Position numbers and translations under genes: made by a program
Virus record (IMG/VR): IMGVR_UViG_2778261527_000007
Source: a virus
Taxonomy: Duplodnaviria > Heunggongvirae > Uroviricota > Caudoviricetes
Reading direction: 5' to 3' (one strand)
DNA: 12,961 bases
Notes under the pieces: model-generated
Told to the model about the DNA's origin: nothing
Seen by the model: the letters and a program-made list of their open reading frames with translations, nothing else
Databases searched by the model: none
Shown here: piece after piece, positions 1,497-10,492 of the stretch
How the letters are laid out: each line of letters opens with the position of its first letter
Numbering within the stretch: the stretch's first letter is position 1

Positions 1497-1689
1497 AAAG
1501 GTTTTCCTTATGGAGGGTTTTAGACGTGGAGAGAGTCCACAGGGTGATCCGGTGCAACGCCGGATATAAGGACCGCCACAGAGGACAATCCGAATTGTTG
1601 GAAGATGGGAGGCCGTGGGGTGAATAGAAGAGGGCGGCATCCGCGCCGCCCTTTCTAATCTGGCTCTCTCTCACCCTCTAGGGTGGGGG

Positions 1690-1709
1690 GAGGTGTAAAC
1701 CTCTTTTTT
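1690..1709 (+). terminator. Possible intrinsic terminator hairpin (GAGGU-GUAA-ACCUC followed by UUUUUU)
   Basis: 5-bp stem with GNRA-type tetraloop followed by six T. Nothing obviously coding upstream on +, so the role is unclear. Confidence 0.3.
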
Positions 1710-1767
1710 GTGGTCACTCACCCGCCAGCGTCACGGGAGCAACCGCCAGCCGATGGGTAAATAACCA

Positions 1768-1796
1768 CAAAAAAGAACCCGGTAGGAGAGACCGGG
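1768..1796 (-). terminator. Intrinsic terminator upstream of the head gene pair
   Basis: On the - strand: CCCGGU-CUCUCCU-ACCGGG perfect 6-bp GC-rich stem followed by UUCUUUUUUG. Sits ~270 bp upstream of the decoration-like gene start. Confidence 0.45.
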
Positions 1797-2697
1797 AGAA
1801 GACAATGTAACTTACTGTCTGATCACTTGTTTTCCTGTGTAGCCTCAGAGCCTTACATGATTTGCTTTCATGGTTCAGCAAAGAAGCCACAGAGGAAAAC
1901 GGGACGCAACCAACGCCCCGGAAACCATCGACACAAATCAACAGTTTATCGTTGAGACCAGGTAACCAGCCCGGCCCAACTGTGGACCCCTAAAGGGTCA
2001 ATACAATCGAAGGAGATTCCGCTTGTATTCTGAAGAGCCGCAGTTAGCGACGCTTTAAAATAGGGCCTGTGCCGCAAGCCCTATGATTAGAGGCATTTTG
2101 AATCGTAGGAATGTCATCAACTGGCGGAACTTGAGGAGAGGACCGCACACAAAGCATTCTGGCAAGTGGAGTTGAAAGAACGCTTTGGGTGAGGGCCGGG
2201 GACTTGCTGAAGGTTCCCGGCTCTCTTACAGACCCTGACAGGTTGGCTAAAACCCATGTTTCTGTACAGGTGTGAGGCGGCAAGCTGCAAAACGGCGATT
2301 TCGACATACTCACCATATCCCACACCATGTATATTAGTTTAACACGAATGATTATCATTTGCAATAAAAATTAATTGCATTGTGTTGTTTGATATGATAT
2401 GTGAGATTGAGGGCAGATCTGGCGGCAGGTACAGAGGAGCCACACAGAAGAGGGGCGGGAGCATCCCACAGGGGCCACAGGAAAGCCTCCACGGGGTTTT
2501 AATGGGGTAAGATGATAAATGACCTTGTCACAGTGGCGGACGCGCTGGAGAGCTTTACAGGAGGTTGTAGAGGGTGGAGGGATTATTGATTGATAATTGA
2601 ACAGGTGAGAGTGTAATTAATTTTTATTGACAGTCTATAAAGATCATGTTATTTGCGTGTGCATACGCACTCACGCCCGCGCCTCCGCGAACACATC

Positions 2698-2802
2698 TTT
2701 TAAATAAAAGATTTTTATTATAATCGTTCAATCGGACTTTGACAAGTCCTCTTTCACTCTTAAATAAAAGATCTTTTATATAATATCTATCGTTCAATAA
2801 TT
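2698..2802. repeat. AT-rich imperfect direct repeat (two ~40-bp copies, ~60 bp apart)
   Basis: TTAAATAAAAGAT(C)TTTTAT..TAAT..CGTTCAAT occurs at 2698-2735 and 2758-2802. A TTGACA hexamer lies between the copies (2739-2744). Confidence 0.5.
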
Positions 2803-2948: not shown

Positions 2949-3006
2949 GGAAATATTTTCCGGGCAGGGTGGAAGATTTTTCCGGCCTGTTAGGAAATAT
3001 TTTCCG
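2949..3006. repeat. Three phased 14-bp repeats GGAA(A/G)AT(A/T)TTTTCCG at 22-bp spacing
   Basis: Copies at 2949-2962, 2971-2984 and 2993-3006, each a near-palindrome (GGAAA..TTTCC). The 22-bp phasing equals two helical turns, typical of protein-binding arrays (operator, iteron or packaging-site type). Confidence 0.6.
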
Positions 3007-3414
3007 ACAATAAGACTATATATAAAACTACCCATAAGACTAACACCCAGGGGCCAGGTCAAGATCTTTAAGGGAGTGTTGGGGAAATCGTAGATTGATT
3101 GGTAAGAGACTGATCTCTGTTAAGCGTCTTACAGACGCGCCTCTTTGGCAGCGCTCGTACCAGCGAGCAAGACCCCTTTGGAACACCGCACGATGTAAGG
3201 TGACCTCTGGGCGGCGGGGTGGGGTCCCCGGCCCGGCATAACGTACAGAACCACAACCCACAGGAACCCACCTAAACGCGCCGCTGTGGCGCTCTCTCCT
3301 ACGTAGACAAGGAAACACCTTATAAACGCCCTCCGGCGCTCTGAGAGCCTTACAGGGGCTTTCTGTGCCTATAGCACAATAAACAAATGATCGCAAGATA
3401 AATCAATAAAGTTA

Positions 3415-3443
3415 TTGCGAATCATTGTCAAATAGTGTAAAAT
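3415..3443 (+). promoter_or_regulatory. Candidate sigma70 promoter for the + strand operon
   Basis: TTGCGA (3415-3420), 17-bp spacer, TAAAAT (3438-3443), ~75 bp upstream of the first ORF. A second candidate is TTGTGA (3449-3454) / TATATA (3472-3477). Confidence 0.3.
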
Positions 3444-4220: not shown

Positions 4221-4409
4221 GTGAGTAAAAATAAAGAGTTGGGGATCAGCTTCGATCCCTATGTGATGGAGCAGCTTTTCGCGTTGGCCTCCACCCGTGA
4301 ACATGGCAGCGTTCACACCATTGTTAAGAAAGCCGTTAGCCAGTACCTGAAAACCGTTAATTCCATCTCTGTTAAGGATTCCCAAAATGACAGCAGCCGC
4401 AGTAAGTAA
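4221..4409 (+). CDS. Ribbon-helix-helix (CopG/Arc-like) DNA-binding protein (62 aa, GTG start)
   Basis: GTG start preceded by AAGGAG. N-terminal pattern ISFDPYVMEQLFALASTREHGSVHTIVKKAVSQYLK fits the beta-strand/helix/loop/helix layout of RHH regulators. Confidence 0.5.
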   Translation: MSKNKELGISFDPYVMEQLFALASTREHGSVHTIVKKAVSQYLKTVNSISVKDSQNDSSRSK

Positions 4410-5049
4410 GCCATTTACCGCAATCCCGCATGACCTTGCGGACATTGAGCTGATCGGAGGCAAGGCGTTTACCATGAACATGGTTTACACCTACAGCCTG
4501 ATCAAAGGTTACCAGGACAATGGGCAAACGGCCTATTTCTCACAAGATCTTTTAGCCCGTCGCCTGGGGGCCACAGATCGAACCGTCCGCAACCTGTTGC
4601 GCGATATGTTGGAGATGGGTCTGATTAACAAGACCGGGCAGATCGGCGGCAAGACCTGCCATTACACAGTTAACCCGATCACCCCGGAAATGGTGGGAAC
4701 CCCTGAAGCCGCCAAACCTGAAGTAACCAAACCAACCGCAGCACCCCAACCGAAGGAGACCGTAGAGAATGCAGGAAGTAACCAGCCTGGAATTGTTAAG
4801 TGTGGATCTGAAAGTGTACATAGAAGCCGCCCGGCGTCGCCTGGAGCTTCTCCTGTGGACCACAGCGGGGGCGCTATTCGTCCCGCTCCTGTCCCTGTGC
4901 CAGTAGAGCAGGGGGCCGCAAACGATGATTTACGCAACCCTGTTATTAATTTTGTGGCTGGCTCTAATGTGATGATGGTCAACGGCTTGCCTGTTGAATA
5001 TCTGGAGCCAGAAGAAAGCGCCGTTGATCAGTTTGGTGATGCTTTCTAA
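4387..5049 (+). CDS. Winged-HTH (HTH_36-like) DNA-binding protein, possible replication initiator or organiser (220 aa)
   Basis: ATG preceded by AAGGA; overlaps the RHH gene by 23 nt. Motif AYFSQDLLARRLGATDRTVRNLLRDMLEMGLI resembles the HTH of phage/plasmid replication proteins, followed by a Pro/Ala-rich linker and an acidic C-terminal domain. Alternative start at ATG 4474. Confidence 0.6.
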   Translation: MTAAAVSKPFTAIPHDLADIELIGGKAFTMNMVYTYSLIKGYQDNGQTAYFSQDLLARRLGATDRTVRNLLRDMLEMGLINKTGQIGGKTCHYTVNPITPEMVGTPEAAKPEVTKPTAAPQPKETVENAGSNQPGIVKCGSESVHRSRPASPGASPVDHSGGAIRPAPVPVPVEQGAANDDLRNPVINFVAGSNVMMVNGLPVEYLEPEESAVDQFGDAF

Positions 5050-5863: not shown

Positions 5864-6238
5864 ATGGAAGCATTTAAGAACCTCCTCAATCAGTTGGAAA
5901 TTCAGAAGGCAGAACAGCGCCAGCGGGAAGCCGAAGAGGCAACCAAACAGAACGAACTCCGCAAGGCACAGGCCGATCTGTCACTGGATGAGGCTATCGC
6001 TCTGTACGCCACACAGTTGGAAGCCTCCGCCAATGCCGCAGACAGCGCCCAGAAGGGCCGCGCCATTAAGAGCCGGGGAATTGCTCTGTGTCACAAGGAT
6101 CAGGGATTCAGCGCCAACGGTCGCCCGGTCTCTCTCCTGACCAAATCCGCAGACCTGCCAGCAGGTCACCGCCGGGTAATCATTAACAAGGCAGCAGGGC
6201 GCACCCTGAAGGCTATCAAACTGGAAGGGGATGAATAA
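5864..6238 (+). CDS. Hypothetical protein (124 aa), translationally coupled to the tape-measure-domain gene
   Basis: ATG preceded by AAGGA. Its stop TAA (6236-6238) overlaps the next ATG (6238-6240) as TAATG. N-terminus is coiled-coil-like. Confidence 0.6.
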   Translation: MEAFKNLLNQLEIQKAEQRQREAEEATKQNELRKAQADLSLDEAIALYATQLEASANAADSAQKGRAIKSRGIALCHKDQGFSANGRPVSLLTKSADLPAGHRRVIINKAAGRTLKAIKLEGDE

Positions 6239-8373
6239 TGAGCGGTAACGTGATCATTACCAAAACGATTAACCGGACCATGTTCACCACGGACGGGGCC
6301 AGCTATAAAAAGACAGTTGACCGTATCAAACAGGTAGGGAAAGAGTGGGACAAAGTAGCGTCCAAGATGAAACCGCTACGCCTCAAGTTTGAGGAAAACG
6401 CCTACACCAAGATCCGCCGGAAACAGCAGGACGCCGCCGCAAAAGCAGCACTGGCAGAAGCCAAAGCCAAAGCGGCAGCAGACGCCAAAGCAGCCAAAGC
6501 ACAGATCGCAGCGGAGCGTAAGATCCAGACAATCCGCGCTAAAGCTATCCGCTTCAGCACTTCAGCGGCTAACGCCAACGTGACCCCGGCCCAACGTGCT
6601 GGACACCTCCAGGAGTTTGGACAGCTTACGCGCCAGTATCACGCCGGGTCTATGGCATTGCAGGAATATAACGCCCGTGTGTCAAAACTTCAGCAAACCA
6701 TGCGCCAACAAGGCCGGGTAGGCATGAGGGGAGCCACAATTCCAGTAACCGCCAAAGTTAACAAACTGGACACCTCCATGATCGAGGGTGCAGGGGGGGC
6801 GATCACCATTGCCGCAACTGTGGCGCTGAGCGGCAAGATCATGACCACCGGGCAGGATTTTGAATCCGCGCTTTCTGGTCTGACAGCGATCACCGGTTCC
6901 ACAGATAAGGCCGCTAAAGAGTTTGATTATCTCCGTGATCAATCCAACCGTTTGGGGCTGGACCTCCTGAAGACTTCAAAGGATTACACTCAATTTGCCG
7001 CCGCTGTTGGTGACAAACTCCCTAAAGACCAGATGAGATCCATCTTTGAGGGTGCCAGTGAATGGGGCCTTGTTACTGGTGCAGACGCCGACGCACAAAG
7101 CCGCGCTTTGAAAGCACTTAACCAAATGATGAGTAAGGGAACGGTGATGAGTGAAGAACTCAAAGGCCAGCTTTCCGAAGCTCTCCCGGGCGCTGTGGGT
7201 CTGTTCGTTAAGGCTCTCAACCAGATGAAAGGGACAACCAACCTTACAGAAAAGGATCTGTTTGACCTGATGCAACAAGGGAAGCTGTTCTCTAAGGACA
7301 TCCTCCCGGAAGTGGCGAAACAGATGAAAGCCGCAGCTCGTAACGGCGGCGCTCTGGATAAGGCTATGAAGTCCAACCGGGCAAGTTGGCAGCGCCTGCA
7401 AACCAGTATGCAGAACGCTATGAATATCTTCTTTACTTCTGGCTTTGGTAACTCACTAACCAGCGCTTTCGACGCTATCAGCGCCGCTGTTAACGGCTCT
7501 GGTGGGGCCTTTGAGATGTTCGGGCATATCGCCGGGAAAATCGTTGAGGGTGCCACAGATGCGTTTACAGAGTTGCACGACACTGTGATCCTGACCTTCC
7601 GCATTATTGAGTATTACGCCGCTAAGATGGGGATCACTGGTGAGCAGCTTAAATCCTGGGGAGAAATGGCAGCATACGCCGCCGGGGTGGCTCTGTTCGC
7701 TGGCTCTATCTGGAAGTTGGGCGGGGCCTTTAAATGGTTGTTGACCATGCTCAACCCGCTAACCAAATTGCTGGGGGTCATGAAAGGGATCGCCGCTATT
7801 GGTGGCATTGAATCCGCTACAACTGGCGGATCTGGTGGGGAAGGTAAAGACAAGCCAAACAAACCGGGCCGGGGTCCGAAAGTTGGCAAGGTAGGCGGCG
7901 CGGCGGCTCTCTCTGGCGGTCCTGTTGGCTGGGGCATTGCGATCGGTTCGGTAGGTGGGGATTATGCCTGGGATAAAGTCATGGACGCTAACGACGCCAT
8001 GTATGGACAGGACACCACCGCCGGAGGCAATCTGAAGAAAGATAGCCCGCTGGGTAAACTGTGGGATTTCATCCACAGCCCAGACCTTCCGACTAATCCA
8101 GACTTTGCCAAACCAACAGATAAAACAGGGTGGGTAAGCTCTTACTCCAATCCGGGTTATGTTCCTCCTGCGCCGACGATTACAGCGCCACAGCTTAAAG
8201 TTGATATGGCAGGTAATCCACTGATGACGCCGCCAGCGTGGCTAAACCAGCCGCTTAACGTGAACGTCAATGTGAAAGTGCAGGATGGGCAGGTTAGGGA
8301 TCTGGTCCGCTCTGAAGTTGAGACCAACAACCAGCAGGCTTTCAACATGCTGATGCAGGGCGGGCCGAACTAA
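6238..8373 (+). CDS. Phage tail tape-measure-domain protein (711 aa)
   Basis: N-terminal Ala/Lys-rich coiled coil, then a region (..ADAQSRALKALNQMMSKGTVMSEELKGQLSEALPGAVGLFVKALNQM..) matching the conserved tape-measure domain as I recall it. C-terminal half has hydrophobic Gly-rich segments (..VGGAAALSGGPVGWGIAIGSVGG..) typical of tape-measure proteins. RBS AGGGGA. Confidence 0.75.
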   Translation: MSGNVIITKTINRTMFTTDGASYKKTVDRIKQVGKEWDKVASKMKPLRLKFEENAYTKIRRKQQDAAAKAALAEAKAKAAADAKAAKAQIAAERKIQTIRAKAIRFSTSAANANVTPAQRAGHLQEFGQLTRQYHAGSMALQEYNARVSKLQQTMRQQGRVGMRGATIPVTAKVNKLDTSMIEGAGGAITIAATVALSGKIMTTGQDFESALSGLTAITGSTDKAAKEFDYLRDQSNRLGLDLLKTSKDYTQFAAAVGDKLPKDQMRSIFEGASEWGLVTGADADAQSRALKALNQMMSKGTVMSEELKGQLSEALPGAVGLFVKALNQMKGTTNLTEKDLFDLMQQGKLFSKDILPEVAKQMKAAARNGGALDKAMKSNRASWQRLQTSMQNAMNIFFTSGFGNSLTSAFDAISAAVNGSGGAFEMFGHIAGKIVEGATDAFTELHDTVILTFRIIEYYAAKMGITGEQLKSWGEMAAYAAGVALFAGSIWKLGGAFKWLLTMLNPLTKLLGVMKGIAAIGGIESATTGGSGGEGKDKPNKPGRGPKVGKVGGAAALSGGPVGWGIAIGSVGGDYAWDKVMDANDAMYGQDTTAGGNLKKDSPLGKLWDFIHSPDLPTNPDFAKPTDKTGWVSSYSNPGYVPPAPTITAPQLKVDMAGNPLMTPPAWLNQPLNVNVNVKVQDGQVRDLVRSEVETNNQQAFNMLMQGGPN

Positions 8374-8442: not shown

Positions 8443-9009
8443 TCATAACAGATCTTCTATTGAATATTTATTACTGAAATCATCTACTTTGCGTTGTGTG
8501 GCCCCAATGTAATGGAGCGTACTGGATAACGATTTGTGCCCCAATGCCTTACTGATTACGGCTATATCCTCCCCATTGTCATAACCAATCGTTGGTTTAC
8601 TCTTCCTCATGCTGTGGGTCGAAAGATTCAGCCCCAGCTTTTCCCCGGCGTAGCTAATTTCCTCATGCAATTTGGAGCGGCTCACAGGTTTTCCCTTGCT
8701 CCTGTGGCTGTCCAACTGTAAGAGGTATACATGATCAGGGTTCGCCTCTCTCCGGGCCGCTATGATGCGTTTAGCGGTATCGGTGAGCCTCACCCGGACA
8801 GATTCACCCGTTTTCTGTTGGGACAGGACAAGGTGATCGCCTTTGATGTCGTCATAACGGATAGAGCGCAGATCCGACACCCTCAGCATTAATTCATAAC
8901 CCAGCAACCAGGCGTCACGGTACAGCGTCAGCCCCTTGCCCTGTTTGAGTAGCTCAACCGCTACCGCTTTCACTTCCTGAACTGATTTACAGCCCTCTAC
9001 GAAATTCAT
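8443..9009 (-). CDS. Tyrosine recombinase, integrase catalytic domain only (188 aa; FimB/FimE-sized)
   Basis: Strong RBS GGAGGG 5 nt before the ATG. All catalytic signature residues of lambda-Int-type recombinases are present in order: R (LRVSDL), K (QQKTG), H-x-x-R (HSMRKS), H and Y (LGHKSLSSTLHY). There is no room for N-terminal arm- or core-binding domains. Confidence 0.75.
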   Translation of the reverse strand: MNFVEGCKSVQEVKAVAVELLKQGKGLTLYRDAWLLGYELMLRVSDLRSIRYDDIKGDHLVLSQQKTGESVRVRLTDTAKRIIAARREANPDHVYLLQLDSHRSKGKPVSRSKLHEEISYAGEKLGLNLSTHSMRKSKPTIGYDNGEDIAVISKALGHKSLSSTLHYIGATQRKVDDFSNKYSIEDLL

Positions 9010-9033: not shown

Positions 9034-9050
9034 TGATCAATTCTTGATCA
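9034..9050. promoter_or_regulatory. 17-bp palindrome TGATCAA-TTC-TTGATCA with two GATC sites, in the recombinase promoter region
   Basis: Perfect 7-bp inverted arms with a 3-bp spacer, 25-41 bp upstream of the recombinase start codon. Confidence 0.35.
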
Positions 9051-9403
9051 AAAACATGCACTTGTAAACGACAAAAATGATTAATTTTATGATGTGTCTT
9101 TTTAGTGAATTAAATCGGGTTTAATCGCGTTTAATGGTAAAGTAATGACCCGGCAGGGGAGGTAATGACCTGTTTAAGTGGGTAAAAGATGGTTACTTAA
9201 TGTACTATCACCACAAGGCGGGTAAGGTGATTTGACTCCCCCAGCGCCTTAAAGTTACTGTATTTGTGGGCAATTAATTATTGTTTCGTTATGGTGTTGC
9301 CTGGCAAATTTTCAATTTACCCTCAAGAAAAAATCCCCAGCTTTTTTATCCTTATATGAGAATCAATATCATTTGTAAACGATAGTCGTTCTCGTTACCA
9401 ATC

Positions 9404-9582: not shown

Positions 9583-9972
9583 AAAACAACAGAATGGTAT
9601 TGTGTTGTTATTAAGTAATTGAGAATAAAGGGATATCTGAGTGAGCGCACTGTAAGAGCGGAAGGTTGGACAATGTTTGACCAGAATGCAGGCCATCCGG
9701 TAGGGAGCGCCCCCAGATATTTGGCGAAAATACTCTCATCACCCGGGGCCTCAGATCGAGGGGCCTAGCAACAATATCCAAACTCCCGGATATTTTCCCA
9801 CCCAACTGGAAGGAATCCGCCCCTATTTTCTGTTCGTGTATAGGTTAGGCTGAGGGAGGCTTGCCAATGTACACCCCCTGGATTTGGTGATCTGTTAAGT
9901 TATTGATTTTGATCGATTTTAGATCAATCATCCGTTGCCGGGATTACCCCCCACCCAGACGGATGGCACACA

Positions 9973-10217: not shown

Positions 10218-10366
10218 GTGCCTGCCATTTATCTGTGGGTCACAACGTGAGACACAAACTGGGACACAGAGGATTTTTTAGGGTTGAGTCTTTGGCTTCC
10301 CGCTGGCATGATCCAGAACAGGGATTAACGGGACGTTAATCGCAAGCTTTTGATTTTGTTTTATTT

Positions 10367-10492
10367 GACTCGGGGTGCCCTTCTTAAATGAAGGCTGAGA
10401 AATACCCGTATTACCTGATCTGGATAATGCCAGCGTAGGGAAGTCACGGACCACCAGGTCATTGCTTCTTCACGTTATGGCAGGAGCAAACT
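10367..10492 (+). promoter_or_regulatory. TPP (THI-box) riboswitch in the thiM leader
   Basis: Aptamer (about 10367-10445) GACUCGGGGUGCCCUUC..GGCUGAGAAAUACCCGUAUUACCUGAUCUGGAUAAUGCCAGCGUAGGGAAGUC is near-identical to the E. coli thiM TPP aptamer as recalled, including the CUGAGA and ACCUGAUCUGGAUAAUGCCAGCGUAGGGAA elements. Expression platform runs to the thiM SD and ATG. Confidence 0.9.

Follow-up and report, generated by a model that had tools for sequence, protein, structure and literature searches.

A phased palindromic array and a covarying winged-helix protein as a candidate iteron origin in an enterobacterial island

The island and its non-coding region

The analysed DNA, a stretch of 12,961 nucleotides referred to here as the window, is E. 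coli DNA, in which an island of ~13 kb is inserted between rcnR and the thiM TPP riboswitch. The riboswitch (10361-10458, plus strand; RF00059, 75 bits) is the sole Rfam match over the window. It lies upstream of thiM and thiD and is ordinary chromosomal context marking the right end of the island. Of 5,426 complete E. coli genomes, 7 contain the island, which is ~13-14 kb in length, and members of its family occur in Cronobacter, Enterobacter, Citrobacter, Pantoea, Pectobacterium, and Salmonella as well. The left part of the island, outside the window, carries a tyrosine integrase and an OLD-type ATP-dependent nuclease, the latter occupying a slot that is variable among the relatives. No terminal overlaps of the kind expected from circular molecules or cos ends were found in the ~13-14 kb contigs, and one relative (L023) has the same short direct repeat at both ends, which looks like an att duplication. 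The island looks like a phage-satellite family, of which a literature search returned no obvious description; PADLOC gave nothing relevant.

The genes are arranged as a leftward pair and a rightward operon, between which RefSeq leaves ~2 kb geneless. In order, the operon encodes proteins of 141 aa and 61 aa, an RHH protein, a 220-aa protein, a 188-aa HTH protein, and proteins of 60 aa, 124 aa and 711 aa. The located genes are as follows.

93-1112, leftward: capsid E-like protein
1125-1640, leftward: weakly lambda-D-like protein
4221-4409, rightward operon: RHH protein
4387-5049, plus strand: 220-aa HTH_36 protein, putative initiator, fourth gene of the operon
6238-8373, plus strand: 711-aa tape-measure-like protein
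8443-9009, minus strand: 188-aa fimB-like recombinase

The 711-aa ORF was considered as a P4-like primase and ruled out, since it is tape-measure-like (Pfam TMP_3; phrog_5255, 1e-110). Its closest phage relatives (36% identity) are the ~146-150 kb Cronobacter/Pectobacterium myoviruses CR3, CR8, PBES 02 and PcCB7V, and the neighbouring 124-aa protein matches Pfam Phage_phiTE_211; both matches hint at the helper lineage. The 188-aa HTH protein and the 141-aa protein gave nothing significant against PDB sequences. Directly beside the recombinase gene, which is fimB/fimE-like, an 833-bp segment is enclosed by imperfect 30-nt inverted repeats (9034-9063 and 9897-9926, 70% complementary) and may be an invertible switch.

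The repeat array is located in the non-coding stretch between two divergent promoters, inside a cassette bounded by conserved DNA.

2717-2745, minus strand: sigma-70-like promoter TTGTCA-17-TATAAT, leftward, 11/12 consensus, ~200 bp left of the array
2910-2935: left anchor GGAGTCTCGCCTGTGTGGCTCACTCC, conserved, able to form a hairpin, bounding the variable cassette
2949-2962, plus strand: repeat 1 (candidate iteron) GGAAATATTTTCCG, near-palindrome GGAAA-TAT-TTTCC
2971-2984, plus strand: repeat 2 (candidate iteron) GGAAGATTTTTCCG, degenerate copy (11/14)
2993-3006, plus strand: repeat 3 (candidate iteron) GGAAATATTTTCCG, centre 8.5 bp from the conserved CAATAA block
3007-3046: A+T-rich block CAATAAGACTATATATAAAACTACCCATAAGACTAAC, candidate DNA-unwinding element, conserved in all relatives
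3050-3076: right anchor GGGGCCAGGTCAAGATCTTTAAGGGAG, conserved in relatives
3415-3443, plus strand: sigma-70-like promoter TTGCGA-17-TAAAAT, rightward, ~410 bp right of the array

In the alignment of relatives, the right side of the cassette consists of the conserved CAATAAGACTA..., followed by GGGGCCAGGTCAAGATCTTTAAGGGAG. The A+T-rich block adjoining the last repeat is short, about 35-40 bp; the 40-bp segment 3001-3040 has a GC content of 0.30 and a dG of -44.6, which places it among the least stable ~5% of the whole window. The rightward promoter serves the operon containing the 220-aa gene, and its -10 region is conserved in relatives.

Several further features surround the array. A 60-bp tandem duplication at 2697-2784 is located in A+T-rich DNA and includes the leftward promoter, and relatives have one of two unrelated versions of this region. 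The leftward promoter (2745-2717) is followed by a ~1 kb non-coding leader ahead of the capsid-module genes (1631-2745, minus strand), in which three terminator-like minus-strand hairpins (1920-1900, 1796-1778 and 1652-1631) suggest control by termination/antitermination. To the right, the interval 3119-3350 contains non-coding blocks that are invariant across distant relatives, such as GTGAC-TCTGGGCGGCGGGGT at ~3200-3220 and GTACAGAACCACAAC...CCTAAACGCGCCGCTGTGGCGC at ~3243-3294. Hairpins interleaved with these blocks (3143-3168) vary in sequence between relatives while the hairpin itself is retained. The invariant blocks of 3119-3350 matched no Rfam family and no phage cos site, and no similarity to phage DNA was found for the 1.9 kb non-coding region.

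The repeat array and its types in relatives

The array was noticed in a preliminary description as three near-identical repeats in phase, and this arrangement is borne out: exact copies start at 2949 and 2993, an 11/14 copy starts at 2971, and the start-to-start distances are 22 and 22 bp with the same orientation throughout. Within the window alone the repeat is a modest excess, as the 14-mer at up to 3 mismatches has 6 matches against 1.48 expected, and 2 of 200 shuffles of the window reach 6 matches. The comparison with relatives is decisive: in the 40 fetched loci, the exact 13-mer is confined to homologous arrays. As judged from these sequences, the triple repeat is real and probably functional.

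The same description had placed a related copy at 9788-9798, on the far side of the operon. GGATATTTTCC is indeed present at that position, more than 3 mismatches away from the 14-mer. Relatives with type A, B or E arrays have it unchanged, and one base is different in a type F relative. Because it stays constant while the array types change, the 9788 site is an unrelated conserved block and not a fourth site.

The relatives fetched for comparison come from two other E. coli strains, Pectobacterium odoriferum, IMG/VR, metagenomes, and contigs with homologues of the 220-aa protein. Across ~30 related loci, the array is a replaceable cassette between conserved flanks, containing one to five palindromes of at least six types, every one of which consists of inverted arms around an A/T-rich centre.

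Type A: GGAAATATTTTCC
Type B: GGGTCATATTGACCC
Type C: GTGTCAAAATGACAC
Type D: ATGACAAATTGTCAT
Type E: AGGCAAAATCTGCCT
Type F: GTGTAAAGAAATCAGACA

The geometry of the cassette is shared among the types. The position of repeat 1 is occupied in the locus alignment by a palindrome of each array's own type, and the middle site is degenerate in type B arrays too. The centre of the last site lies 8-9 bp from the CAATAA block in 21 of 21 arrays measured, whatever their type. By motif search, most arrays have a spacing of 21-23 bp between their last two sites, the gaps of 33-46 bp reflecting either a degenerate middle site missed by the regular expression or mosaic arrays.

Some arrays are mixed. A lone type A site, CGGAAATATTTTCCGG, stands at the left edge of the type C or D arrays of four relatives (L008, L028, L032 and L021), and the arrays of L017 and L018 contain mixed site types. 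The stray type A sites may be a remnant of cassette exchange or serve a second binding protein. An extra 101-aa winged-helix paralogue is encoded in some relatives, and its presence does not track the extra type A site.

Covariation with the 220-aa winged-helix protein

In the 220-aa protein, residues ~10-105 form an N-terminal winged-helix domain and residues 107-180 a disordered linker, which is followed by a small C-terminal region with the final residues ...DQFGDAF. An AlphaFold2 model agrees with this layout: the N-terminal domain has a pLDDT of about 90 (~20-100), the linker 107-180 is disordered, the C-terminal region is small, and no helical oligomerisation domain is present. Pfam recognises only the general winged helix HTH_36, and homologues of the protein occur only in Enterobacteriaceae. 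The C-terminal module assorts independently among relatives. The C-terminus is in all cases acidic and closes with Phe (...DQFGDAF, ...WDLDPAF, ...IDFGDPF; 5020-5049 in the window); across 57 homologues, the terminal F and the D at -6 hardly vary. This acidic C-terminus resembles the tails of E. coli SSB and T7 gp2.5, C-terminal tails that recruit replication proteins.

Two relatives illustrate how the N-terminal domain and the array go together. SCU-316 is a close relative, its 141-aa protein being 91% and its RHH protein 100% identical to those of the window, and has type B repeats. EC24 is distant (67% and 33%, respectively) and has type A repeats like the window. In the first ~100 residues of the 220-aa protein, the window is almost identical to EC24 and SCU-316 is diverged, and the opposite holds for the C-terminal part.

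Among 120 homologues, the N-terminal domain is a three-part mosaic, formed by a first segment of two forms, a helix 2/recognition helix unit of classes r1-r7, and a wing of three forms. The repeat type follows the recognition-helix class without exception in the four classes and 14 loci compared. Predictions made before the loci were fetched agree with this rule. A chimera joining a 'beta' first segment to r1 (L029) was predicted to have type A repeats, one joining an 'alpha' first segment to r3 (L028) was predicted to have type C, and both predicted types were found. For the near-identical classes r4 and r5 a shared type was predicted, and type F was found in L030, L023 and L031, inverted in the last. 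Classes r6 and r7 are both paired with type D arrays.

The association was localised by comparing nucleotide identity between same-type and different-type pairs in 150-nt segments over 14 loci (91 pairs). One segment stands out.

4537-4686, plus strand: covarying segment, codons 51-100 of the 220-aa gene (helix 2, recognition helix, wing)

Here same-type pairs share 87.1% of their nucleotides and different-type pairs 68.3%, a difference of 18.8 points that is reached by 1 of 20000 and 0 of 2000 label permutations, and in the scan this is the only segment associated with array type. For the left flank, the 1.4-1.7 kb stretch from array to gene (including the RHH gene), the linker and the 188-aa HTH gene, the difference stays between -1.8 and +5.4 points. 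Since codons 51-100 alone are associated with the array type and the intervening DNA is not, simple linkage does not account for the association, which makes the recognition helix and wing the probable reader of the repeats. By these comparisons, related islands have repeatedly exchanged the repeat sequence along with the putative DNA-reading helix. If the origin reading is right, this would provide a natural catalogue of matched helix/site pairs, in which small helix changes appear to switch the target among at least six palindromes, useful for studies of winged-helix specificity.

These results also bear on which protein would bind the array. The preliminary description had named the RHH and HTH proteins encoded downstream of the array as candidates, and one of them, the HTH protein of 4387-5049, covaries with the sites. 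The other two drop out: a relative with a different repeat type encodes the very same RHH protein (4221-4409; 100% identity), and the 188-aa HTH protein has no association with array type. A host transcription factor is excluded as the binder, because a change of site type goes along with a change in a helix that the island itself encodes.

The fold of the N-terminal domain places it near replication initiators. Foldseek against the PDB returned the staphylococcal RepA_N plasmid initiators 4pql, 4pt7 and 5kbj on top, with 108 aligned columns and E-values for the RepA_N structures of 4e-3 to 2e-2. MarR-type regulators rank below them with ~70 columns, and the best structural neighbours over ~93-108 residues are initiators and not repressors. 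Against viral models, many Foldseek matches are named replication initiators, and PHROGs gave six 'replication initiation' families (E 6e-6 to 3e-4), those called 'O-like' matching weakly. The domain has the RepA_N / DnaD N-terminal-domain fold. By sequence the protein belongs to no initiator family: 0 of 57 members match Pfam RepA_N (PF06970) at E <= 0.01, one of 57 has a sub-threshold match to Phage_rep_O (E 0.002), the protein has no match among PDB chains, and 72,556 plasmid records gave none either.

Function of the array and comparison with known systems

We propose, with a probability of roughly 0.7, that the array is an iteron origin and that the 220-aa protein, encoded 1.4 kb away, is its PLE-RepA-like initiator. 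Iterons were one of the functions suggested in the preliminary description, and this suggestion has gained the best support, from the phased sites, the covariation of the cognate helix, and the initiator-like fold. Several phased copies of one binding site are present (three here; one to five in relatives), and covariation is the evidence that a protein of the same element has the matching specificity. We infer physical binding, origin firing, A+T unwinding and C-terminal recruitment as follows. Dimers of the N-terminal winged-helix domain would bind each palindrome, with all sites facing the same side of the helix at a distance of two turns. The nucleoprotein complex thus formed would destabilise the conserved A+T-rich block, which starts 8-9 bp from the last site, and the flexible linker together with the short C-terminal module would recruit the replication machinery of the host or of a helper phage. 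Recruitment from outside is proposed because the island proteins scanned gave no sign of a helicase or primase; in Pfam, PHROG and NCBIfam, no replication, helicase or primase family was found among the other island proteins. If correct, this reading fixes an origin and an initiator for a rare island that is publicly a set of 'hypothetical' proteins plus 2 kb of blank DNA.

The main alternative is an operator array, in which the 220-aa protein would be a transcription regulator binding three cooperative operators like lambda OR1-OR3. Three palindromes ~22 bp apart between divergent promoters do resemble OR1-3 in number and spacing, the winged-helix fold is common to repressors, and in the immunity regions of lambdoid phages repressor and operator are swapped together. 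However, the array lies ~200 and ~410 bp from the predicted promoters and overlaps no -35/-10 pair in a scan for the sigma-70 consensus only, and the adjacent TATAAA-like stretch is not conserved in relatives. Moreover, the 220-aa gene is the fourth of a long operon and not a divergent repressor gene, and the protein, whose best structural neighbours are initiators, has a long disordered linker and a C-terminal module that assorts independently. We therefore consider an operator unlikely.

A packaging site like cosB/pac would instead be bound by a satellite small-terminase-like protein that redirects the helper's terminase. Lambda cosB likewise has three R sites for a winged-helix protein, whose C-terminal module binds a partner. 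Capsid-like proteins are among the products of the island, and ~200 bp right of the array the invariant GC-rich block contains GGGCGGCG (3209-3216), the first 8 bases of the lambda cohesive end. Against this, the sites are palindromic and not oriented like R sites, and the model lacks a helical oligomerisation domain. In addition, hhalign of the 220-aa protein against lambda Nu1 gives a probability of 0.9%, and no Pfam, PHROG or fold match is named a terminase, which leaves the terminase-binding repeats of the preliminary description without support. A cos site at the GGGCGGCG block likewise has no support: BLAST of 3176-3262 against phages gave chance-level matches only, a pattern scan of viral contigs for the block found the island family, one case within a long ORF of an unrelated contig and one further contig, and no phage record or viral contig has the GC-rich block at a genome end. 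Packaging is very improbable on this evidence.

Least probable of all is another site-specific role, in which the array would act in partition or as a centromere-like site, serve as an architectural element in excision, or bind a host factor. Plasmid partition systems, too, use small winged-helix proteins that bind repeated palindromes, and TubR is among the weak Foldseek matches, but the window ORFs scanned include no partition NTPase. As for excision, the integrase and att ends are several kb away in annotated relatives, and a host-factor site is excluded by the type switching described above.

Compared with known replicons, the proposed origin shares features with that of lambda, which has four 18-bp palindromic sites with starts 20-24 bp apart followed by an A+T-rich region. 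In both arrays the palindromes would be occupied by initiator dimers, and lambda O is, like the 220-aa protein, a two-domain protein with N-terminal DNA specificity. In contrast, the lambda origin lies inside the O gene, whereas the island array is non-coding and 1.4 kb upstream of the 220-aa gene. The protein falls outside the lambda O family, as hhalign against lambda O gives a probability of 0.3% and the array is outside the gene, and no family match to a P-like helicase loader was returned for the island. RepA_N plasmid initiators (pSK41, pTZ2162) are the top Foldseek matches and share a variable C-terminal domain with the 220-aa protein. In RepA_N systems the iterons have inverted arms around an A-rich centre, as in the island repeat types (PMC7145576). 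These systems reside on Gram-positive plasmids, unlike the chromosomal island, and Pfam RepA_N has no match in the island protein. The lambda pairs of cosB R sites with Nu1 and OR1-OR3 with cI also combine three phased sites with a winged-helix/HTH protein whose specificity varies among relatives; they differ in that the island protein has no Nu1 similarity and the island sites overlap no promoter.

The replicon of PLE, a phage satellite of Vibrio cholerae, is closer still to the island than lambda ori. It contains three semi-palindromic iterons in non-coding DNA, and its initiator RepA, like the 220-aa protein, has no helicase or primase domain (PMC8263062, PMC7145576). The structure 4ro3 is the N-terminal domain of this RepA, which was placed in the RepA_N family by structure only (PMC7145576). 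Sequence similarity between the 220-aa protein and PLE RepA is not detectable. The two systems differ in the length of the iterons (13-18 bp in the island and about 30 bp in PLE) and in the number of specificity types (at least six in the island family and two in PLE). Furthermore, the island has an Enterobacteriaceae host, encodes a tyrosine integrase and capsid E-like and tape-measure-like proteins, and is described here from sequence. Array and protein are most likely a further case of a known kind of system, in an island family without an obvious published description. If this holds, the PLE-type replicon would extend beyond Vibrio, with an initiator that lacks a helicase or primase domain and carries a swappable DNA-binding module.

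A domain related to that of the island protein is also found in phages. A tblastn search with the N-terminal domain matched six of 50,697 phage records, which come from four ~146-151 kb E. coli myoviruses: Mt1B1_P17 (genus Phapecoctavirus), muut, inny and BI-EHEC. The protein in Mt1B1_P17 is located as follows.

MT496970.1 20722-21708 (L041:2593-3579): 328-aa 'hypothetical' protein of Mt1B1_P17

It contains two tandem winged-helix copies, 25% and 32% identical to the island protein, the helix of the second copy reading SDRQVRNIINMFVDMG compared with TDRTVRNLLRDMLEMG in the island protein, and a C-terminal T5orf172/MUG113-type endonuclease (phrog_681 'endonuclease', 2.4e-18; Pfam MUG113, 4.4e-4). 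ICP1 Odn, a nuclease with which that phage cleaves the origin of PLE by mimicking RepA, has this architecture of an initiator-type DNA-binding domain joined to a T5orf172-type nuclease (PMC8263062). In the first 150 kb of Mt1B1_P17, no other island protein has a homologue, and a search allowing up to 1 mismatch found none of the iteron types. Because helix classes r1 and r2 are equally similar to the phage domain, the target of the nuclease cannot be assigned. The protein may just as well be an ordinary homing endonuclease carrying a related DNA-binding domain.

The fusion to an endonuclease hints at an origin-targeting arms race, and a phage nuclease mimicking the DNA-binding module of the initiator would, if so, possibly be part of the system. 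A broader scenario, which we regard as doubtful, is an undescribed enterobacterial satellite family with a PLE-like replicon, whose six or more specificities would have arisen from an arms race with virulent ~150 kb myoviruses, a few of which would encode an independent Odn analogue that cuts the satellite origin. Such an origin-directed nuclease would explain the many origin specificities, and the presence of the domain-endonuclease fusion in E. coli phages makes the idea directly testable.
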